Assembly: GCA_963832745.1 (NCBI GenBank)
Contig: CAWHVC010000004.1
Location: forward strand, 96,001 to 160,000
Origin: Candidatus Bathyarchaeota archaeon
Lineage (GTDB): Archaea > Thermoproteota > Bathyarchaeia > Bathyarchaeales > Bathycorpusculaceae
Length of the DNA stretch: 64,000 bases
Direction of reading: 5' to 3'
The position numbers and the translations under genes are program-made. A model generated the notes under the pieces. That model worked only from the letters and a program-made list of their open reading frames with translations, made no database searches and had not been told where the DNA came from. Positions 17,347-28,770 of this stretch are shown piece by piece (the stretch's first letter is position 1; every line of letters starts with the position of its first letter).

Positions 17347-18310
17347 ATGTTAGGTAGCAGATACGCATTTGACGGTCAAACGGTAATAAACCTTTGAAAT
17401 CGCAAGTCAATTCAAAAGAGGAATTACTTCAAAACATAACTGTAGGAAAATATCGGCGCGAAGAGATAAAATGTGAATGCGATTCAAACTCTTTTGAATT
17501 ACTATCTGAAAAAGACCGGTACGGTATTCCAGTGAAAACTGTTATCTGCAAAAAATGTGGGCTCATCCGCCAAAATCCCCGTTTAAATGCAGAATCATTA
17601 AGCGATTTTTATGCTAAGCTATATAGGGGTTTGTATGAAAGTTCATCTGTTTCTGCGTTATTTAACAACCAATTACATAGAGGAAAAAAATAATAAAGTG
17701 GATAAACCAAAAATTGGGTTACCTTCCCGAAAAAGTTATTGAAATTGGTTGTGGAGCTGGGGGCATTCTTAAAGCATTTCAGAACATGGGTTGTAAGACG
17801 TTAGGTATAGATTTTAATCAAAAATATCTCGATTTTGGAATTGCAAACGGTTTAGATTTGCGACTTGGTGGCACAGGTGTATTAAAAGACTATACCGCTG
17901 ACCTAGTTATTCTTTCCCATGTTGTTGAACACTTTTCAGACCTGAACAAAGAATTAAGTGCTATTGGTAACTTGCTAAAAGCATCTGGTCATTTGTACGT
18001 GGAAGTTCCTGGAGTTTTTAATTTACGCCCTTATTCTTTTGATTTCCTTCGAAGCCTTCAAAATGCCCATAACTACTATTTTACGCTAGGGACTTTAACG
18101 CAAGTTATGGCGAAATATAGTTGGAGTCTAAAATATGGCGACGAAAGGGTTCGCTCACTATTTATTTTAACTAATAAGAAAGACGACATATCGCAAAACC
18201 ATTACTTTGTAACTATGCATAAACTAAATCAATACGAAAGAATACGTCCCTTATTGCGACCGCAATTAAGCAGTTTGATGAATAACCTTTTGTGGTTAAT
18301 CGATATATAA
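17347..18310 (+). CDS. Class I SAM methyltransferase with N-terminal Zn-binding module, frameshifted (~17392, ~17690)
   Basis: CxC...CxxCG module in 17394-17693 joins EIGCGAG, SHVVEH, YVEVP in 17714-18310 across an A-run. Confidence 0.8.
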
Positions 18311-18404
18311 TTTATTTAAAAAACGCTTGTAGTTAAGCCTTTCATTTTTTCAATATTTTTAAATATCATAGAATAGCCTACGTAACCTAAGCGGTCGTTT
18401 CACT

Positions 18405-19580
18405 GTGTATAAAGGTCATTACATCATATCTATTATTCCTGCACGTGGGGGAAGTAAAGGTGTTCCGCGCAAGAATATCAAAGAGTTATGTGGCAAACCT
18501 TTGGTTGCTCATTCGATAATACACTCTTTGCACTCTCAGTATGTTGATAAGACTATTGTTTCGACTGAGGATCTAGAAATTGCCGATGTTAGCCTAAAAT
18601 ATGGTGCTGAGGTAATTTTACGACCGCAGGAACTGGCTACCGATGAAACTCCGACTGAACCCGTTATGATCAATGTTTTATCTCAACTCGCTAAGGATAA
18701 TATTGTTCCTGATTATGTTGTTCTGTTACAACCTACTTCACCCATCCGGTTGTCTGCTGACATTGATCAAGCAATTAGAAAAATTATTGATGATAAAGCT
18801 GATTCATTGATTAGTGTCCGTGAAAACAGTTCCTTCTTCTGGTCTAAGGAAAACGAACCTTTAAATTATGACTATCAAAAAAGGCCACGCAGGCAAGATA
18901 AGCAATGGGAACTAATTGAGAATGGTTCGATATACATAACCAAAAGAGAGATTTTAGTTAATGAAAAGAACCGGATAGGTGGGCGTATATTAACTTACCT
19001 TATGCCTGAATGGGCTTCATTTGAGATAGATACTGCCTTTGACTTTGATTTGATAGAATTTATCGCACGAAAATATTTTTCTAACTCTATTACTGGACTT
19101 GAAGGCATAAAGCTTGCTATTTTTGATGTTGATGGTGTTTTTACCGATGGCTCTGTTTATTTGGGTGAAAATGGTCAAGAAATGTTAAAGTTTTCTAGAG
19201 TAGATGGCAAGGGCATTGAATTGTTACAGAGAACAGCTATCGAAATTGCTGTAATAACATCGGAAGATAACGCTATAGTTAGAGAAAGAATGAAGAAATT
19301 GAGTATTAATCGTGTTTATACTGGTATAAAAGATAAAAAATGCATTTATGACTTATTAAAAAAAGAACTAAACATAACAGATGAGGCAGTTGCCTACTGT
19401 GGTGATGATACAGGTGATTTAGTTCCAATTAAAAATGCAGGATTCACTGCTTGCCCTCGTAATGCCGTTGATGTAATAAAGCATGAATGCATGTACGTTT
19501 CATCCCTTACCGGTGGTTCAGGTTTTGTTCGGGAAATATGTGACTTAATCATTGCTTCTAAGGAGAAATCTAAAGAATGA
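18405..19580 (+). CDS. neuA: Bifunctional CMP-nonulosonate synthetase / KdsC-family HAD phosphatase
   Basis: IPARGGSKGVPRKN, LQPTSP, ENG, EIDT; then FDVDGVFTDG, DGKG, GDDTGD, GGSGFVRE. Confidence 0.9.
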   Translation: MYKGHYIISIIPARGGSKGVPRKNIKELCGKPLVAHSIIHSLHSQYVDKTIVSTEDLEIADVSLKYGAEVILRPQELATDETPTEPVMINVLSQLAKDNIVPDYVVLLQPTSPIRLSADIDQAIRKIIDDKADSLISVRENSSFFWSKENEPLNYDYQKRPRRQDKQWELIENGSIYITKREILVNEKNRIGGRILTYLMPEWASFEIDTAFDFDLIEFIARKYFSNSITGLEGIKLAIFDVDGVFTDGSVYLGENGQEMLKFSRVDGKGIELLQRTAIEIAVITSEDNAIVRERMKKLSINRVYTGIKDKKCIYDLLKKELNITDEAVAYCGDDTGDLVPIKNAGFTACPRNAVDVIKHECMYVSSLTGGSGFVREICDLIIASKEKSKE

Positions 19581-20452
19581 ATTTAAAAATAGGAAACAAA
19601 GAAATTTCTAATAATAGTCCAATTTTTTTCATAGCTGAAATTGGCATAAATCATAATGGTGACATTGAAAAAGCAAAAGAGCTAATTGATTTAGCTAGTT
19701 TCTGTAAATGCGACGCTGTTAAGTTTCAAAAAAGAACCCCTGAACTTTGCGTCCCCGAAAAACAAAGAGACACCCTTAAGGACACTCCATGGGGCAAAAT
19801 GACTTATTTTGACTATAAAAGAAAAATCGAATTTGAGGAAGAAGAATATAAAATAATTGATGATTACTGTAAAAGGAAAGACATAGTTTGGTTTGCTTCA
19901 CCTTGGGATACGCCCAGTGTCGATTTTTTGGAAAAGTTTGATGTACCTTGTTATAAAATACCTTCAGCAATGATTACAAACAAGGCTCTTTTGCAAAAGA
20001 TTAAAGATACCGATAAACCGATTTTTCTATCTACGGGAATGAGCACTGTAGATGAAATTGACAATGCGATAAACGCTCTTAGCGGTCAACCCATAGTTTT
20101 GATGCATTGTAATTCTTCGTATCCTTCTGATGCTTCAGAACTAAATTTGCGAGTGATCGAACTGTATCGGCAAAAATACTCCGATTGTATTATTGGCTAT
20201 AGTGGTCATGAAAAAGGTTACGCTGCATCCCTCGTTGCTGCAGTCTTAGGTGCAAAAGTTGTCGAACGACATATTACCCTTGATAGAACAATGTGGGGGA
20301 GTGACCAAGCAGCAAGTTTAGAACTAGATGGGTTACGGCGGTTAGTTAGAGATTTATCTTCTCTTGATATGTGGTTGGGTGATGGTGAGAAAAAAATTTA
20401 CCCTTCTGAACTTCCGATAAGAGCAAAACTAAGACCGTCCAATGATACTTAA
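19577..20452 (+). CDS. neuB: NeuB-family nonulosonate synthase lacking the C-terminal SAF domain
   Basis: IAEIGINHNGD, VKFQKR, GYSGHE, ERHITLDRTMWGSDQ. Confidence 0.92.
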   Translation: MNLKIGNKEISNNSPIFFIAEIGINHNGDIEKAKELIDLASFCKCDAVKFQKRTPELCVPEKQRDTLKDTPWGKMTYFDYKRKIEFEEEEYKIIDDYCKRKDIVWFASPWDTPSVDFLEKFDVPCYKIPSAMITNKALLQKIKDTDKPIFLSTGMSTVDEIDNAINALSGQPIVLMHCNSSYPSDASELNLRVIELYRQKYSDCIIGYSGHEKGYAASLVAAVLGAKVVERHITLDRTMWGSDQAASLELDGLRRLVRDLSSLDMWLGDGEKKIYPSELPIRAKLRPSNDT

Positions 20453-22332: not shown

Positions 22333-22725
22333 CTAGTAAGCCGAAGAATCAAATATTTTGGAAGTAAAAAGTTCAATTTCTTTTTTGGATTCAAGAATGT
22401 TAGTAAGCAAAAGTTTGCCCTTGGGTGTCAAAGAGTAAACAGTCTTTGCGTTTTCATCCAGTTTCCTTTCTATAAACTGATCCTCTTCAAGAGAATGCAA
22501 AACACGATAAATTTCACTTACATTAAGTCTGATACCTTGCTTTTGTAAAATAATTTTTAGAATATCATAACCCGTTACTGGTTTCTTCTTGTTTAAAATC
22601 ATTAGACTTACGATGTTCAAATAATTTTTTAGAATTTTAGTCTGTATTTCTTTTGATTTTTTAGAGGCACCCTGTTTTGAAGATGTCGTTGTTTCAAGAC
22701 ATTTTTGATCAAATATGAGCGTCAA
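22333..22725 (-). CDS. PadR-family transcriptional regulator
   Basis: TGYDI, IYRVLHSLEEDQFI, YSLTPKG. Confidence 0.85.
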   Translation of the reverse strand: MTLIFDQKCLETTTSSKQGASKKSKEIQTKILKNYLNIVSLMILNKKKPVTGYDILKIILQKQGIRLNVSEIYRVLHSLEEDQFIERKLDENAKTVYSLTPKGKLLLTNILESKKEIELFTSKIFDSSAY

Positions 22726-23500
22726 GCTTCTCTATTACCCCCAGTAAGTCCATCACAAAGGGATGCTGCCCTTTTTCGATAGATAAGATACAGGTGCGTT
22801 TTGTTTGAAGAACATCACAGTAACAGGGAACTGCACCTATAACCGGTCGCTTGAAGGTTGACTGTGCTTGGGTTATCGCATCTGTTTTCCAATCACTTGG
22901 TAAATCAATGGCTGAAGGAAAAACTTTGTTGAGCAATATGACAGCTTTCTTTTCTATCGCATCATAAAGATCAACTAGGAGACTTTTAGTGCCTTGAGTG
23001 TCCAATGAATCAAGCGTTGTAACAATTATTGATAAATCTGAACTTATTGCAGCATTCACCGATGTATACTGGAAACCGGGACTGGTATCCAATATGCAAT
23101 AATCAACATTCATTTCATTGAATAATTGCGACCGTAGAGCGAGAAGTCTTTTAACTGCTGAAACTTCCCAAGCTCGACTCTTCTCAGTAATACTGCGAAT
23201 AGCCCCACCGTCAGGGTCTGAAAAACCAACCAATAATCTGCCACTTAATTTATACCTCGAGGACAAATCGACCGTTGCAACCTCAGCAGGACATCGACCG
23301 TCAAAATAAGAATTCAAGTAACAATCAATAGGTAACGCTTCCCCCCGTGAAAACACGCCTGCTAAACTTGGCGCTCTAAAATCAAGGTCAAGAAGTGCAA
23401 CATTCAAGCCTTTTTTTGCCATCAATGCAGCTAGATTTGTTGACAGAAGTGTTTTACCTGTCCCGCCCCTAGAAGAGTGAATCGAGATACACTTGCCCAT
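22709..23500 (-). CDS. MinD/ParA-family ATPase
   Basis: Deviant Walker A RGGTGKT, LLDLD, ILDTSPG, LLNKV. Confidence 0.9.
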   Translation of the reverse strand: MGKCISIHSSRGGTGKTLLSTNLAALMAKKGLNVALLDLDFRAPSLAGVFSRGEALPIDCYLNSYFDGRCPAEVATVDLSSRYKLSGRLLVGFSDPDGGAIRSITEKSRAWEVSAVKRLLALRSQLFNEMNVDYCILDTSPGFQYTSVNAAISSDLSIIVTTLDSLDTQGTKSLLVDLYDAIEKKAVILLNKVFPSAIDLPSDWKTDAITQAQSTFKRPVIGAVPCYCDVLQTKRTCILSIEKGQHPFVMDLLGVIEKLDAHI

Positions 23501-23502
23501 TA

Positions 23503-23934
23503 TTATTCCTCCTTGGATGCTTCAATGTAAAAATAAACTTCATGACCAACTCTTTTTTTCTTAAAAAAACCCAGACGGGCAAGCTCATTTGCAGCGGCGC
23601 TTTCTACAGCACGCATTCTGTTAGTTTCTTTCGCTAAATCATCAGCCGTAGCCTGCTCAAGCTTGTACAAAACCAACGCTGTTTTTCTTAGAGCCGCAGG
23701 TAATGACAGAAGCGCCATTGAATCAGGCTGGATTTCTATTTTTCCTTTTTTCCCTTGTAATCCAGTGGGCATTCTTTGCAAGATGGTCTCATTAATTTCT
23801 AGAATTCGTTCATTTATTTTTATTAATTTGTTTAATCTATCGTTAATCTGGTTAAGTACACTCACTGTTTGAAAAAGTGGTTGTTCCGACGTTTGTTCTG
23901 AACTCGAATCTTTTGTTTCAGGTGTGATTTCCAT
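23503..23934 (-). CDS. Coiled-coil plus winged-HTH transcriptional regulator
   Basis: N-terminal heptads; ATADDLAKETNRMRAVES...NELARLGF..KKRVGHEVYF wHTH. Confidence 0.75.
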   Translation of the reverse strand: MEITPETKDSSSEQTSEQPLFQTVSVLNQINDRLNKLIKINERILEINETILQRMPTGLQGKKGKIEIQPDSMALLSLPAALRKTALVLYKLEQATADDLAKETNRMRAVESAAANELARLGFFKKKRVGHEVYFYIEASKEE

Positions 23935-24048: not shown

Positions 24049-25035
24049 ATGAACGCTCGCGAGCAACTTCAAAACATTCTTGAAACTTATGGCGCACACA
24101 ATGCATATCAGGCAACAAAAACCCTAACAACCTTAGACGTTCAAGAAAATCTCAAACCAATTTTTAATTACATATCAAAAACATGGCGCGACCCTTTAAC
24201 ACCGGCAATGATGAATCTATCCTGTAAAGTTGTTGGTGGCGAACCTGAAGAAACTCAAAAATACGCAATAGCTGTAAGCCTGCTAAACCTGAGCATGAGA
24301 ACCTGGGATGACGTTATAGACAAAACAACCGTAAGAAGCCTTAAAAAAACCACAGTTGGGGAAATCGGAGAGAAAAACTCCATCATCATTGGCGGGTTAA
24401 TATCTGCTAAAGCATTTCTTACCCTAAACCAAACAAGAATAAACTTAAAAAAAGAAGAAGCAATAGCAAAAATCTTATGGACCTATTTATCCACGATGTC
24501 AGAAGCCGAGATTATTGACAATGGCATTAAACCAGAATTTTATTTACCAAAAAATAAACTGCAAAAAATCAAGACTGAAGCAATAGGCTTAGAAACATGC
24601 CTTAGCATCGGAGGCATTGTTGGCAATGGCTCTGAAGAAGAAATAAACGCTTTAGGGAACTATGGTAGAATTCTTGGAACACTACTTGAATTATGGAAGG
24701 ATCTGCTAGTTTCTTTAAACCTGACAATGGAATTAGAACAAAAAATCCGGAACAAAAAATTGCCCTATTTTATCTTAAGAACCAAAAAATACAGTCTTGA
24801 AACACGAGAACTGCTCAAAAAAATGTCAAAAAACGATATTGAAGGCCAGGATATAGGAATCTTGGTTGAAAATGTTCTAAAGAATAACACAAAAATAATT
24901 AAAACTAAAGTTGAATCATTAACAACCCGTGGAATAAATCTCCTTGAACCATTTAGAGGCTGTGAAGAAAAAGAGAATCTGAAAAAAATTCTAAGCATTC
25001 AACCAAAAATATTTGATGAATGCTTAAACGGTTGA
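24049..25035 (+). CDS. Polyprenyl-synthetase-fold (class I isoprenoid synthase) protein with degenerate second aspartate motif; candidate ComQ-like peptide prenyltransferase
   Basis: FARM WDDVID intact; RRG loop is RSL; SARM position reads ELWKDLLV instead of QxxDDxxD. Confidence 0.8.
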   Translation: MNAREQLQNILETYGAHNAYQATKTLTTLDVQENLKPIFNYISKTWRDPLTPAMMNLSCKVVGGEPEETQKYAIAVSLLNLSMRTWDDVIDKTTVRSLKKTTVGEIGEKNSIIIGGLISAKAFLTLNQTRINLKKEEAIAKILWTYLSTMSEAEIIDNGIKPEFYLPKNKLQKIKTEAIGLETCLSIGGIVGNGSEEEINALGNYGRILGTLLELWKDLLVSLNLTMELEQKIRNKKLPYFILRTKKYSLETRELLKKMSKNDIEGQDIGILVENVLKNNTKIIKTKVESLTTRGINLLEPFRGCEEKENLKKILSIQPKIFDECLNG

Positions 25036-25043
25036 AATTTCTG

Positions 25044-25262
25044 TTAATATTCCTCAGGCCATTTTTGAGGACTTACCGACATAATGACGGAAACAACTGA
25101 GCTTATGTGAGCGCTGGGTATTTTGGCTTTTCTGCAAACTTTAACTAACGAATTTTTGTCGTTTTTGTTTACTGCAGCTTGAATTTCGCTTGAAAACTCT
25201 GGCTTCGATAATGTTTGAAGACTACTGGCAACGCCACTTATTTTTGTATTTAAATTTATCAT
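25044..25262 (-). CDS. 72-aa peptide, candidate precursor (helical leader plus C-terminal QKWPEEY)
   Basis: ORF converges on the prenyltransferase with an 8-bp gap; single Trp is 5th from the C-terminus. Confidence 0.7.
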   Translation of the reverse strand: MINLNTKISGVASSLQTLSKPEFSSEIQAAVNKNDKNSLVKVCRKAKIPSAHISSVVSVIMSVSPQKWPEEY

Positions 25263-25356
25263 TTAAACCCACCATATTTTAAATCATTTGATTCTGTTTT
25301 TAAGCTTTCTTAACAATTTAAAATACTTTAAATGCTCTTAGACGCTATCTCTAAAG

Positions 25357-26583
25357 ATGTGCCATAACATGCTTGGCCTTCCTGAAATTAGGACAAAAAT
25401 GAAGTTTTTTAACAGCAATTTTCTTGTAAACGTTTTCTTGTTCGCAAGCTTCTTCAGCTTTTATTACATTTTTTCACTCCATGTTATCCCTCAAGTTTTT
25501 GCAGCAAGCATTAGTTTGCCATTACAAGCTCTGTTTAGCTTTACCATAATTATTGCTTTACTTATGATTAGTCATTCTTTAATAAAAGCCAGCGAAAAAG
25601 AGCGCATAATAATTCCTTGTTTAAGCATTTCTATCTCCCTTTTAGGTTTATTTACTATTCCATTATTTGCCGTAAAATTGGCTTGTGTTTTGGTTATAGG
25701 TGTTGCATTTGCGGTGGGGCAACTTTCGGCTTATACATATTTTTGGCGTACGACTAAAGCTGAAGAAAGGGGGCGTGTGGGTGGACTAATCAGTTTCATA
25801 GGCTTGCCGATTTACTTTGTTGCCAGTAATCTTTTGGCTGCTAACTTTGGTCTTATTGAAAAAATTACTCTTTGTTTGTTTCTTTGCGGCTTAGCAGTTG
25901 TCTCTATTTCCTTCACAAAACCCCTGATTCTTCAGGAGAATAAAAATAAAGGTGGATACTATCCTGAGAAGCGAACAATCCTCTTATACTCAATCCCCTG
26001 GATCATTTTTACGTTCGTAAACGCCACCTTTGCTAAAAACATTTCTGAAATAACTTCAACACTAATTCTGCCCTCATTGTATAACCAGCTAATACTTATC
26101 CAAACATTTGCAGCATTAATAGGCGCTTTAAGCGGCGGGTTCATAGCTGATTATTTTGGAAGAAGGTTGACTTTGGTCTTAAGTGTCACATTATATGGCG
26201 TGAGCATGACATTACATGGAATTACCAGTAGTGAAGTTTTAAACTTTTTTGGATTTGCCGCTGAGGGTTTAAGCTGGGGCATTATTCTGACATTATTCGT
26301 GTTTGTGATTTGGGGTGATCTCGCCAATAAGGTAAATTGTTCAAGAATCTTTGCAGTCGGGTTATCAATTTTTTATTTTTTTACCGGTATTGGAATTTCA
26401 AACTTCTTTGTTATTGATTCATTAACAACTAATACGCTAATTAGTTGTTTGCTTATCTTTTTATCAAATATTCCGATTGTGCTTGCTCCCGAATTATTGC
26501 CTTCTGACACAAAAGAGAAAATGAGACTAAAAAAATACATGAAAAACGTAAAACAAATCGTTAAAGACACAGAAAAAAAATAG
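25357..26583 (+). CDS. MFS-type transporter
   Basis: About 12 TMs; GFIADYFGRR motif A; EERGRVGG. Confidence 0.8.
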   Translation: MCHNMLGLPEIRTKMKFFNSNFLVNVFLFASFFSFYYIFSLHVIPQVFAASISLPLQALFSFTIIIALLMISHSLIKASEKERIIIPCLSISISLLGLFTIPLFAVKLACVLVIGVAFAVGQLSAYTYFWRTTKAEERGRVGGLISFIGLPIYFVASNLLAANFGLIEKITLCLFLCGLAVVSISFTKPLILQENKNKGGYYPEKRTILLYSIPWIIFTFVNATFAKNISEITSTLILPSLYNQLILIQTFAALIGALSGGFIADYFGRRLTLVLSVTLYGVSMTLHGITSSEVLNFFGFAAEGLSWGIILTLFVFVIWGDLANKVNCSRIFAVGLSIFYFFTGIGISNFFVIDSLTTNTLISCLLIFLSNIPIVLAPELLPSDTKEKMRLKKYMKNVKQIVKDTEKK

Positions 26584-26591
26584 TTGACTTA

Positions 26592-27515
26592 CTATTTCAG
26601 CCTGAACAGGGAAACCTGCTTGATACTTTCCAGTCTACATATCCATTGCAAAGCACGTTCTACGCCCAAAGCAAAACCTGCCTGAGGTACACTACCAAAC
26701 CTTCTCAGATCCAAGTACCACTTTTGAGCTTCAGGGCTAATCTCAAGCTCTTTCAACTTATTTATTACGACATTTTTTTGTCTTAACATTTCTCCGCCGC
26801 TGGCAATTTCACCATAACCACCCGGAGCTATTAGGTCACAAGACAAGGTTAATTCTGGTTTGCGAAAAACAGGTTTATGAAAATAGTTTTCGCCATTTAG
26901 TGGAAACTCGGTGATGAAAAAAGGTTTTGTAAACGTCTTGCTAAGTTCACTTTCTTGAGACCAATCAATAGTCTCGCCCCAGAAAACCTTGAATCCTAAT
27001 TTTTGCAGTCTATTAATTGCTTCATCATATGTTAATCGACAAAAGGGTGGCTTAACTAGTTTTAACGTTTCAACCAAACTAGAGCCATTTAAAAATAATA
27101 ACTCTTCTGAAACATCTTCCAATAACTTGGAACATACAAAAGAAATCATTTTCTCCTGAAAATCCATAATTTTTTCAAAAGTAAAATTTAACGCAGACAC
27201 TTCCACTCGCCAAAACTCAATCAAGTGCCTATCCGTGTCATGTTCCGGTCGAAAAGTTGGTGATACAGTATAAATTTTATTAAACATCTCAAGGAAGCGG
27301 TCTGAGTAGGGCTGTAACCTTCCACTTAAATCCATTTTTCTATTTCCATAAGAAACCTCAAAACTAGCCTTTCCCTCAATAATTGGCACTAACAAGGGCG
27401 CTTGAACTTCTGTGAATTCTTGAGCTCCTAACCAGAATCTTGTAGATTCTAACATTTTTGCTCTTACTTTCAAAATTGCTCGATAGCGCTTCACGTCAGC
27501 GTAATCCAGTGTCAT
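26592..27515 (-). CDS. Asparaginyl-tRNA-synthetase paralog lacking the OB-fold anticodon domain (AsnRS2/EpmA-like class II ligase)
   Basis: Motif 1 FTEVQAP, motif 2 FRPE..RHLIEF, motif 3 GFALGVER; only 307 aa. Confidence 0.85.
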   Translation of the reverse strand: MTLDYADVKRYRAILKVRAKMLESTRFWLGAQEFTEVQAPLLVPIIEGKASFEVSYGNRKMDLSGRLQPYSDRFLEMFNKIYTVSPTFRPEHDTDRHLIEFWRVEVSALNFTFEKIMDFQEKMISFVCSKLLEDVSEELLFLNGSSLVETLKLVKPPFCRLTYDEAINRLQKLGFKVFWGETIDWSQESELSKTFTKPFFITEFPLNGENYFHKPVFRKPELTLSCDLIAPGGYGEIASGGEMLRQKNVVINKLKELEISPEAQKWYLDLRRFGSVPQAGFALGVERALQWICRLESIKQVSLFRLK

Positions 27516-27979: not shown

Positions 27980-28170
27980 TCAATTTTTCACATACCACGC
28001 TTTTGGTTCTTTAGCTTTTAAAATTTAGTAACAAAATTAACTATTAAAAAAAATATAACTTGCCTTTTGTTGACTGCAAAATTAGGCTAATCGAGCTACC
28101 GCATCCCGTGGAAACTGGGAATGAGCAGATTTATCTGGAAGTGTGTATACATTATGTATGTGTGGACTGC

Positions 28171-28398
28171 ATGGCAAGACAAATTTCAGTCTCAAACGAA
28201 GTCTATGAACTCCTTTTGGAACGAAAAGGCAAAAAAAGCTTTTCACAGGTAATTAAAGAAAACCTTTGCATCAAAGAGGAAAAAGTTGACATCATGAGTC
28301 TAGCAGGCATCTTAAAAGATGACAAGGAAGAGCTTGAACGATTAAAGCAGCAAATAGCCGCTGAAAGAGAGGCAAATTACGGAAGGACATTTGAGTGA
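28171..28398 (+). CDS. vapB: Antitoxin, VapB-like (archaeal)
   Basis: MARQISVSNEVYELL...KSFSQVI; overlaps downstream PIN gene (GTGA). Confidence 0.85.
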   Translation: MARQISVSNEVYELLLERKGKKSFSQVIKENLCIKEEKVDIMSLAGILKDDKEELERLKQQIAAEREANYGRTFE

Positions 28399-28770
28399 CT
28401 TTTCTTGATACAAGCGTCATAATAGATTTCTTGGCAGGAGACCAAAAAATTGTTGCATTAATACAAGAAATCTTAAAAAAAGAAGAGGTGAAAACCACAA
28501 CAATAACCGAGTACGAGCTGCTTAGGCATAAGACTAAAATAAAAAAACAAGCAGCTCAACGATTCCTCTCCGGAGCAACCGTCTGCTCTTTCGACCGAAC
28601 TGCCGCCCAAAAAGCTGCTGCTCTTTTTGAAGAACTCAGAGAAGCTGGAAAAATGATTAACGAAAACAGATTTGCTTATTGCAGGCATTTCCCTTGCTCA
28701 CGATGAGGTTTTACTAACAAGAGACCAAAAACTATCCAATGTTAACAAAGATAACATAAAAATGGTCTAA
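28395..28770 (+). CDS. vapC: VapC PIN-domain toxin, frameshift ~28668
   Basis: FLDTSVIID, ITEYEL; shifted frame gives DLLIAGISLAHDEVLLTRD. Confidence 0.88.

Follow-up and report, generated by a model that had tools for sequence, protein, structure and literature searches.

Background

The locus described here raises the question of whether an archaeon prenylates a small protein by means of an enzyme derived from the isoprenyl diphosphate synthases (IDS), in the manner of the bacterial ComQ/ComX pair. The window (the whole stretch of DNA that was analyzed, 64,000 nucleotides) covers positions 96,001 to 160,000 of the forward strand of contig CAWHVC010000004.1 in assembly GCA_963832745.1 of a Candidatus Bathyarchaeota archaeon, and contains a gene for an IDS-fold enzyme and a convergent gene for a 72-residue protein, the stop codons of which are 8 bp apart (25036-25043). 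A sequence-only reading of the window had proposed that the two genes encode a modifying enzyme and a signaling peptide prenylated on Trp, with an exporter beside them, and the features on which it drew (the open reading frames (ORFs), the WDDVID and ELWKDLLV motifs, the 8-bp tail-to-tail gap, the lone Trp and the divergent gene for a protein like those of the major facilitator superfamily (MFS)) are all in the sequence. The pair belongs to a module that is conserved in about 100 loci and is so far confined to Bathyarchaeia. The function tentatively favored, with confidence a little below even, is ComQ-like prenylation of the aromatic residue 68 of the small protein by the IDS-derived enzyme, which would be an archaeal counterpart of bacterial peptide prenylation. 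The enzymes paired with the small protein are referred to as group A, and the features of the pair are as follows.

24049..25035, forward strand: IDS-fold enzyme of group A, 328 residues, candidate aromatic prenyltransferase (PF00348, 40.8 bits)
24304..24321, forward strand: first Asp-rich motif (FARM) of the enzyme, W86-D-D-V-I-D91, with D87, D88 and D91 fixed
24688..24726, forward strand: pseudo-second Asp-rich motif (pseudo-SARM) of the enzyme, E214-L-W-K-D218-L-L-V221, then S222 and the N224-L-T226 loop (alignment of 75 enzymes)
25044..25262, reverse strand: small protein, 72 residues, candidate precursor or acceptor (homologues, coding signature and pairing)
25056..25064, reverse strand: K67-W68-P69 of the small protein, the aromatic residue being W or Y family-wide and K and P having zero entropy
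25047..25055, reverse strand: hypervariable three-residue tail of the small protein, here E-E-Y (column entropy, 87 peptides)

Conserved pairing of the two genes

A word-indexed search recovered 47 relatives of the enzyme with 39-59 % identity. The small gene was found convergent to the enzyme gene in all six orthologous loci (60 relatives), in 18 of 18 loci from a species-representative genome collection, one of these being frameshifted in a long-read metagenome-assembled genome (MAG), and in 61 of the 61 metagenome loci that extend 100 bp or more past the enzyme; the metagenome set comprised 80 loci, and the other 19, which break off no more than 98 bp beyond the enzyme, show no small gene. 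The orientation was always convergent, and the stop codons were between -7 and +26 nt apart, most often +5 or -4 nt, except in a single outlier (-41 nt). A search from the peptide side, made with a profile of distant members, gave 15 sites (14 of 401 genomes of the class), and at 14 of these sites the peptide has an IDS-like gene as its immediate neighbor. The co-occurrence in Bathyarchaeia that had been predicted from the window is borne out by this strict linkage. When the distant-peptide profile was applied across the phylum, five of 401 genomes were matched; two of the five matches were weak, lay inside 476-residue ORFs and were taken as spurious.

The genome loci are all named Bathyarchaeia or Bathyarchaeota, bar one labelled Sifarchaeum. 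This locus (L033, on a 5.3-kb contig) is from the MAG Candidatus Sifarchaeum subterraneum and its enzyme is sister to a Bathyarchaeia one, and its placement outside Bathyarchaeia could reflect mis-binning or transfer. On L048, a contig from a long-read MAG, the enzyme, peptide and MFS-like genes are each split into several frames, likely through sequencing indels rather than decay. A 220-residue database protein, P0076, consists of the N-terminal part of a group A enzyme (about 175 residues) joined in-frame to about the last 45 residues of the small protein, and is probably an assembly chimera or inversion, the source genes being on opposite strands.

When the IDS-like ORFs of the relatives were scored with a profile of the group A family, group A reached 341-548 bits, its sister groups B and C 153-244 bits, and the canonical geranylgeranyl diphosphate (GGPP) synthases of the same genomes 47-48 bits. 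Beside each of the group C enzymes (L064, L065 and L066, the last being the same as L030) a protein distantly related to the small protein is encoded convergently, and these relatives end in GDIIW, NPWMTGA and PGWFLK, with a Trp one to five residues from the end. Group B is widespread in the order, usually arranged as PadR-like, IDS-like and MFS-like genes on the same strand without a peptide (loci L008-L029 and L050). In 26 group B loci, a search for small antisense ORFs that are conserved yielded nothing but antisense images of conserved coding sequence. Two group B loci (L010 1357-1500, forward strand; L016 2365-2502, reverse strand) share an ORF of 45-47 residues that is convergent to the 3' end of the enzyme gene and contains EVLNRYTGEEKWR; it was not found in the other group B loci. 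In the group B paralogue of the window's own genome (L050, G000:C5:431217-433484) the MFS-like partner is read through two TGA stops and may be broken.

Enzyme properties

The enzyme matches the Pfam family polyprenyl_synt (PF00348) weakly (40.8 bits, cut-off 27), and its best NCBIfam match is the archaeal short-chain IdsA at 66.8 bits, far under the cut-off of 468. An AlphaFold2 (AF2) model of the enzyme, with a predicted local distance difference test score (pLDDT) of 91.9, was assigned by Foldseek to the trans-IDS fold, with template modeling (TM) scores of 0.78-0.82 to solved synthases, and the indole prenyltransferase Ord1 appeared at ranks 43-49 (TM 0.73-0.74). A profile search of PDB sequences gave the GGPP synthase of Pyrococcus horikoshii (1wy0) as the best match at 97.6 bits; Ord1 scored 55.6 bits with the group A profile, at about rank 21, no closer than dozens of ordinary synthases.

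In an alignment of 26 relatives, W46, P52, D87, D88, I90 and D91 are invariant, and ELWKDFHVSLNLTLEL is conserved at the expected place of the second Asp-rich motif (SARM). Among 75 distinct paired group A enzymes, no variation is seen at the FARM residues D87, D88 and D91, and D218 (the SARM's second Asp) is retained in 73, N224 in all 75 and T226 in 74, whereas the first Asp position of the SARM is occupied by K, N, Q, R or H and the fifth by V, I, A or S. Position 214 holds E in 62 of these enzymes, A in six, G in four, S in two and K in one; it co-varies with position 217 (window 24688-24702), E214 occurring mostly with K217, and A, G or S214 with N, Q or E217. The GGKRxR motif has become (K/T)WRDPLTP in group A and RRG has become x-F/L-K, so that the columns that read GGKRWRP, IDDIED...RRGKP and FQMQDDILD in canonical GGPP synthases read (K/T)WRDPLTP, WDDIIDK...x-F-KPT and ELWKDFHV in group A. 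Loss of the second motif and of the RRG loop, first noticed in the window's enzyme, is a family-wide trait of the 75 enzymes and not a local accident. In group B the same basic residues are gone, but HDDIID and a second motif of the form [DE][DE]xxD are retained. An S/T-L-N-L/I stretch after the SARM position is common to groups A and C and absent from the peptide-less group B, the group C enzymes reading D[DE]V[KR]D[ST]LN[IL]E after the second-motif position.

Group A does not show the features of a chain-elongating trans-IDS, the second DDxxD, GGKRxR and RRG all being lost. It also departs from the pattern of the IDS-derived terpene synthases, since FARM alone is intact and a single Asp is left in the second motif; those synthases are described as keeping both metal-binding Asp-rich motifs and losing the binding of isopentenyl diphosphate (IPP) (PMC10108439), a two-motif pattern that group B fits better than group A. 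From the motif pattern, the known fold and the IPP-binding motifs given in PMC10108439, the enzyme appears to keep the site for binding and ionizing an allylic diphosphate and to have lost the IPP-binding site. Judged by sequence, group A would be a Bathyarchaeia-specific, IDS-derived clade that is unable to elongate chains. A canonical GGPP synthase is encoded elsewhere in the window's genome (218 bits), and therefore the group A gene is not needed for chain elongation.

Small protein properties

Five relatives of the small protein (51-79 % identity) were found in the indexed collection, and an exhaustive profile search yielded 42 representative homologues, nearly all of 56-78 residues. Its own frame is the sole open one in 17 of 17 homologous stretches, substitutions at codon positions 1, 2 and 3 number 2227, 1452 and 3711 (94 pairs), and a GGTG resembling a Shine-Dalgarno motif lies 7 nt upstream of the ATG in the window, with such motifs in 13 of the 20 loci checked. 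The small ORF thus has the marks of a true coding gene, far beyond chance.

The single Trp of the protein lies in the C-terminal SPQKWPEEY. K67 and P69 are the same in all 87 distinct peptides of the close subfamily, residue 68 is W in 69, Y in 18 and F in none, and exactly three residues follow K-[W/Y]-P throughout. Of the 73 columns, the three of the tail come 1st, 2nd and 4th by entropy (3.2, 3.8 and 2.9 bits, against a mean of 1.45), and the 87 peptides have 79 distinct tails, none of them with K, R, H or C. The remaining body of about 65 residues is conserved, with L18, A30, D35, L39, C43, A46 and P49 invariant in 25 sequences. Variable flanks on both sides of the Trp had been expected; the C-terminal flank is variable and the other is not. 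In its conserved body, its aromatic residue at a fixed distance from the end and its hypervariable tail, the small protein is laid out as a precursor of the ComX, PalX or StheX type. Switches between W and Y number at least five on the enzyme tree and at least two in a smaller, careful tree. Distant representatives retain L18, P49 and an invariant W-P, and have tails of 0-5 residues that are rich in Trp and Pro (for example WPPLLWW, WPPPFWW, or a protein ending at WP).

The maximum Kyte-Doolittle hydropathy over 19 residues is at least 1.6 in 14 of the 87 peptides; the median maximum is 1.25, the value for the window's peptide 1.17 and that for the distant set, in which the segment carries Lys and Arg, 0.72, and the hydrophobic stretch before the motif is only about 11-14 residues long. 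A role of the last helix as a transmembrane anchor is disfavored, the values falling mostly below the threshold of 1.6, and a membrane role is weighed below as an alternative. Pfam and NCBIfam gave no match for the window's peptide at E values up to 0.1 or for four relatives at E values up to 1, the small-protein profile found nothing below E 0.7 among PDB sequences, and the ESM Atlas gave no usable match. A likeness of the helical region to Nif11-type leaders, suggested in the sequence-only reading, found no sequence support in Pfam, NCBIfam or PDB sequences. Six matches of the peptide profile to P0091, a 2120-residue NACHT and HEAT-repeat protein, were dismissed as generic helical-repeat likeness.

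Predicted interaction of the two proteins

Complex prediction was carried out with both chains supplied as custom alignments, so that the benchmark counts hold roughly; in the benchmark 58 of 80 solved complexes attained the mark, as did two of 110 mismatched pairs, and scores of 0.60 or under comprised seven of the 80 solved complexes and both of the mismatches that passed. The enzyme and the small protein scored 0.52 (runs 0.01, 0.61 and 0.52), the best of three controls scored 0.00, the runs agreed in at least 8 % of contacts, and the pLDDT of the partner was 68-75. Because the synteny is strict, the modeled score is read as mild support for binding of the peptide by the enzyme. The binding that had been proposed gains a weak pass; on the location of the tail, and hence on the placing of Trp68 in the acceptor pocket, the prediction is silent.

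An initial scan of 22 pairs for enzyme columns that track W versus Y picked positions 84 and 182. The association of column 84 dissolved in the larger set and this column was dropped. Glu stands at position 182 in 58 of the 64 enzymes with W-peptides versus three of 11 with Y-peptides (75 pairs), and by alignment this position lies one helical turn past the motif KT[AGI].[FLY] on the floor of the IPP site (motif from PMC10108439). The relation of position 182 to a W or Y acceptor is a lead suggested by the alignment, not a result.

Gene neighborhood

The other genes of the module are as follows.

25357..26583, forward strand: MFS-like membrane protein, 408 residues (PF07690, E 1.4e-7)
26592..27515, reverse strand: paralogue of the catalytic core of asparaginyl-tRNA synthetase (AsnRS), 307 residues, without the anticodon-binding domain (PF00152, 153.9 bits)
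23503..23934, reverse strand: 143-residue protein with a weak C-terminal winged helix (wHTH) like that of TrmB or MarR (PF01978, E 0.014 only)
22709..23500, reverse strand: P-loop ATPase of the ParA/MinD type, 263 residues (Pfam matches AAA_31, CbiA and ParA)
22333..22725, reverse strand: PadR-like winged-helix regulator, 130 residues (PF03551 PadR, E 5e-11)

The small gene and the MFS-like gene are divergent with a 94-bp spacer, and an upstream operon of three genes, with the 143-residue wHTH gene first and the PadR-like gene last, is divergent from the enzyme gene. The same seven genes were present in 18 genome loci compared with 8-kb flanks, and the genes outside them are unrelated. The system had initially been placed at 24049-26583, a span that holds the core genes and misses four conserved ones at 22333-23934 and 26592-27515. 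Among metagenome loci with room for the gene in question, the MFS-like gene was in place in 46 of 48, linked to the pair as had been proposed, the AsnRS-core gene in 36 of 36, the wHTH gene in 64 of 66 and the ParA-like gene upstream in 44 of 46; the last is found in the genome loci also. A PadR-like homologue is at the same place in most genome loci, and was detected by tblastn in 14 of 37 metagenome loci with room, a count limited by low sensitivity.

The MFS-like protein matches Pfam MFS_1 in two stretches at 31.2 bits (gathering cut-off 33.4), and a G-x-x-x-D-x-x-G-R-R motif is visible in it. The AsnRS-core paralogue aligns to residues 130-425 of the 434-residue P. horikoshii AsnRS 1x54 (E 2e-55) and weakly to the classical archaeal AsnRS-related peptide 1nnh (E 1.6e-12), and keeps class II motifs 2 and 3. 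It does not have the full AsnRS architecture, the 307-residue protein consisting of the core only and lacking the N-terminal anticodon-binding domain, and its NCBIfam matches are all below cut-offs, with asparagine synthetase A at 167 bits. Truncated AsnRS copies of at least 38 % identity adjoin the MFS gene of the module in five relatives (G019, G024, G030, G031 and G035; 61 relatives), and in G047 such a copy lies apart, on another contig. In many genomes the group B and C enzymes are followed by MFS-like paralogues, and ParA-like homologues adjoin paralogous IDS-MFS pairs in some other families; because these homologues accompany group B and C enzymes, the association of IDS and MFS genes, with the ParA-like and PadR genes, appears older than the peptide-bearing group A.

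Family scans and neighborhood comparison found no histidine kinase or response regulator (ComP/ComA) among the module genes. PADLOC assigned none of the seven module proteins to a defense-system family and gave two marginal matches at E values of about 1e-3. A scan for sigma-70 promoters and terminators, which is ill-suited to archaea, gave no more matches than in shuffled sequence. Just downstream of the module, window positions 28060-28706 hold a VapB-like antitoxin (PF02697) and a PIN-domain protein (PF01850) with a 4-nt overlap, which are an ordinary toxin-antitoxin pair. At 17714-20452 a methyltransferase, a cytidylyltransferase-HAD fusion and a NeuB-family synthase are encoded in a row, which suggests a nonulosonic-acid sugar pathway.

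Comparison with known systems

In eukaryotic CaaX prenylation the lipid is placed on a Cys that stands a fixed, short way from the C-terminus, and the three residues after it are loosely constrained. The candidate tail is alike in logic only, since the CaaX enzyme acts on a Cys thiol and is an alpha/beta heterodimeric zinc enzyme of unrelated fold. Peptide prenylation by the synthase fold is known only from a few bacterial enzymes (ComQ, PalQ, ChrPC and StheQ), which are all described as Trp-specific (PMC13290415).

ComQ of Bacillus has the IDS fold, keeps FARM and preserves only the second Asp of its pseudo-SARM, which is essential (PMC5331326; likewise PMC10853753), and the motif pattern of group A, in which only the second SARM Asp is kept, agrees with this. 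The natto pheromone comprises residues 53-58 of a 73-residue precursor, and its modified Trp is fifth from the pheromone C-terminus (PMC5331326); the letters K-W-P-P-I-E, given for it in the sequence-only reading, do not appear in the passages on it there. As with ComX, the small protein is encoded next to the enzyme, carries its candidate aromatic acceptor a few residues from the C-terminus and has variable residues near it; unlike ComX, it has W or Y, a fixed position fifth from the end, exactly three tail residues and a highly conserved body. The likeness to ComQ put forward at first stands for the motif pattern, and membership of the family is not supported: group A is nearest to archaeal GGPP synthases, has Glu in place of the conserved Gln described below, and lies in a locus that, unlike comQXPA, has convergent genes and no ComP or ComA, with MFS-like, AsnRS-core, ParA-like and wHTH genes linked instead.

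StheX of Sphaerobacter thermophilus has 69 residues, ordered from 1 to 59, and a flexible tail with W68, and StheQ forms a stable complex with full-length StheX, has one Mg2+ bound at FARM and is metal-free at the pseudo-SARM (preprint 10.64898/2026.08.29.745113). The small protein is similar in size and likewise has its aromatic residue in the C-terminal tail; the pseudo-SARM reads N-D-x-x-D after Gln in StheQ and K-D-x-x-V after Glu in group A, and stheX is downstream in the same cluster whereas the small gene here is on the opposite strand. PalX has a conserved, folded body of the NHLP type, and the predicted complex, the route by which PalQ of Paenibacillus alvei was found, puts its C-terminal Trp in the active site (PMC10853753); PalQ reads position from the free C-terminus (PMC13290415, section 2.4). 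The small protein shares with PalX a long conserved leader-like body and an aromatic acceptor candidate at the C-terminal end. However, PalQ requires a terminal Trp, whereas here P-x-x-x follows an acceptor candidate that may be Tyr; a histidine kinase is linked in Paenibacillus and none here, and no NHLP or Nif11 match was found here.

Ord1 (PDB 9V4G/9V4J), a Streptomyces all-alpha indole prenyltransferase, has the same fold as the group A enzyme, the sequence Y215-Q216-x-x-D219-D220-x-x-A223, metal at FARM only and its aromatic acceptor in the former IPP site (PMC12510300). It acts on free indole or tryptophan and keeps Y-Q-x-x-D-D-x-x-A, unlike group A. The motif pattern of group A matches the FARM-only metal and metal-free pseudo-SARM of StheQ and Ord1 (10.64898/2026.08.29.745113, PMC12510300). 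A conserved Gln just upstream of the SARM is common to trans-IDS-like peptide prenyltransferases (PMC13290415, section 2.4); it is Q212 in StheQ (10.64898/2026.08.29.745113) and is also found in Ord1, as Q216 (PMC12510300).

Literature searches found no archaeal equivalent of the enzyme-peptide pair in print, in agreement with the sequence-only reading, and the terms prenyl and tryptophan are absent from the main text of a 2025 survey of archaeal peptides that are made by ribosomes and modified after translation (RiPPs). The likeness to ComQ and ComX appears to lie in mechanism and layout, and the sequences are read more simply as having arisen independently from archaeal IDS stock; the pair would work like ComQ/ComX, PalQ/PalX and StheQ/StheX, and its origin is probably a separate one, from stock resembling the archaeal GGPP synthases.

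Proposed function and alternative explanations

The observed motif pattern, strict linkage, peptide anatomy and module extent are the basis on which we infer active-site binding, prenyl transfer, the length of the prenyl donor, what the MFS-like and AsnRS-like proteins do, and a signaling function. The enzyme would be an IDS descendant that no longer binds IPP and still ionizes an allylic prenyl diphosphate at its first Asp-rich motif. The 72-residue protein would dock through its conserved body, and its K-[W/Y]-P-xxx tail would enter the former IPP site, where the electron-rich ring of residue 68, fifth from the C-terminus, would receive the prenyl group; W and Y are both ring nucleophiles. 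The three-residue tail of fixed length may serve as a ruler from the free carboxylate, and its hypervariability may confer strain specificity or may simply be unconstrained. The lipidated product would be exported or flipped by the linked MFS-like protein, and the AsnRS-core paralogue may modify it further. A quorum-sensing role, as originally proposed, is speculative; it is argued by analogy and from the hypervariable tail, and no result came out in its support. Unlikely when taken as a whole is the fuller scheme in which independent archaeal prenylation at a "[W/Y]-P-x-x-x-COOH box" is combined with a pherotype-like exported lipopeptide and with AsnRS-core modification of the neighboring Lys.

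Several findings weigh against prenylation of residue 68. Conservation of the Trp had been set as a test beforehand, and Tyr is present in 18 of the 87 peptides, with at least five changes on the enzyme tree. The characterized trans-IDS-like peptide prenyltransferases, by contrast, all target Trp, and PalQ is inactive once its Trp is replaced by other nucleophilic residues (PMC13290415, section 2.4). The conserved Gln of these enzymes is not found in group A, which has Glu214 here and A, G or S in part of the family. The complex score is only a weak pass, and the position-182 link, picked post hoc, fails a relatedness-aware test (three independent pairs, median p 0.5) because power is lacking. 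Conservation is higher in the small protein than in the enzyme (79 % versus 59 % identity in the closest pair, 57 % versus 43 % for L031), which is unusual for a disposable leader. A preference for W or Y and not F is also that of positions at a membrane interface. The enzyme and small genes are convergent and not co-transcribed. In G347, a genome of the same genus, the peptide (ending in KYPIFL) and the AsnRS-core, MFS-like, wHTH and ParA-like genes are kept and the enzyme is absent; no group A enzyme is encoded elsewhere in that genome (best 197 bits), and its locus (L063, G347:C9:195825-199025) has about 250 bp of non-homologous sequence between the wHTH gene and a peptide gene that is intact and more diverged. 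An intact group A enzyme, L052 (G161:C115, minus strand, about 1688-2713), reads NNMMD at FARM, and its partner peptide ends in LKWPILE. Group B has IDS-MFS pairs without a peptide, and the IDS-MFS core can therefore work without one.

These points bear on the alternatives in different ways. Persistence of the peptide without an active enzyme in G347 and L052, conservation of the whole small protein beyond that of the enzyme, retention in group B of FARM, [DE][DE]xxD and the adjacent MFS-like gene without a peptide, and a weak complex pass (0.52 versus 0.00) that speaks for binding and not for tail catalysis would all suit a small protein that is a specificity, regulatory or scaffold subunit and not a substrate, the enzyme converting a small molecule or lipid moved by the MFS-like protein. 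Such a role would leave unexplained why K-[W/Y]-P is at a fixed distance from the end and is followed by the three most variable positions, and why the variable tails of distant relatives are rich in Trp. In the known heteromeric prenyl synthases, unlike group A, the large subunit retains both Asp-rich motifs, and we consider the non-substrate role to be improbable, though worth serious attention. The small protein might instead be membrane-associated, with K-[W/Y]-P at the interface, and work with the MFS-like protein, its adjacency to the enzyme reflecting a shared pathway. Trp or Tyr (not Phe) together with Lys is typical of an interface, a hydrophobic segment precedes the motif (at least 1.6 in 14 of 87), the MFS linkage holds in 46 of 48 loci, and in G347 the peptide and the MFS-like gene persist although the enzyme is gone. 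Yet the median maximum hydropathy (1.25, and 0.72 for the distant peptides) does not reach the customary 1.6, the stretch of about 11-14 residues is short, and strict pairing with an enzyme that lacks its own acceptor site would go unexplained, which makes the membrane role quite improbable.

A further alternative draws on EpmA, a truncated LysRS paralogue that modifies a Lys of elongation factor P. By analogy, the small protein could chiefly be a substrate of the AsnRS-core paralogue, which would place activated Asp or Asn on Lys67, the IDS-like enzyme being separate or secondary. The AsnRS-core gene is in place in all 36 loci, adjoins the MFS-like gene of the module in five relatives and is retained in the enzyme-less G347, class II motifs 2 and 3 are kept while the anticodon-binding domain is gone, and Lys67 is invariant; truncated AsnRS paralogues are also known as asparagine synthetases, however, and the asparagine synthetase A matches in NCBIfam (167 bits, below cut-off) point that way. 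Modification of Lys67 could coexist with prenylation rather than replace it, and as the chief role of the small protein it is more doubtful still than a place in the membrane. The least credible alternative, to which hardly any weight is given, is that the pair truly belongs to the bacterial ComQXPA quorum-sensing family and was gained by horizontal transfer. It would account for the shared pattern of FARM and pseudo-SARM and for a small adjacent peptide bearing a Trp, but the best PDB match is the Pyrococcus GGPP synthase 1wy0 (97.6 bits, versus 55.6 for Ord1), the best NCBIfam match is archaeal IdsA, the closest paralogues are Bathyarchaeia IDS-like genes (153-244 bits to the family profile), the module has no histidine kinase or response regulator, and the enzyme and small genes are convergent and not same-strand and overlapping. 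A 2014 census, in the part of its text concerned, did not find comQXPA outside Firmicutes (PMC4008528).

Conclusions

The module is well delimited, widely conserved and unannotated, it occurs in an abundant, uncultured sediment lineage, and it holds a clear candidate pair of enzyme and acceptor. To our knowledge, archaeal modified peptides and cell-cell signals are barely known. If residue 68 is prenylated as proposed, the pair would be the first archaeal case of peptide or protein prenylation on an aromatic residue and would provide the first Tyr acceptor for the fold, possibly with Tyr chemistry that is new to it, and two domains of life would have recruited the IPP site of a prenyl synthase in parallel to receive an aromatic acceptor on a peptide. 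Should the reaction not be confirmed, the strict pairing would still point to an as yet unrecognized role of a small protein with a prenyl-diphosphate-binding enzyme. Prenylation of this protein, if true, would give a handle on communication or protein lipidation in Bathyarchaeia.

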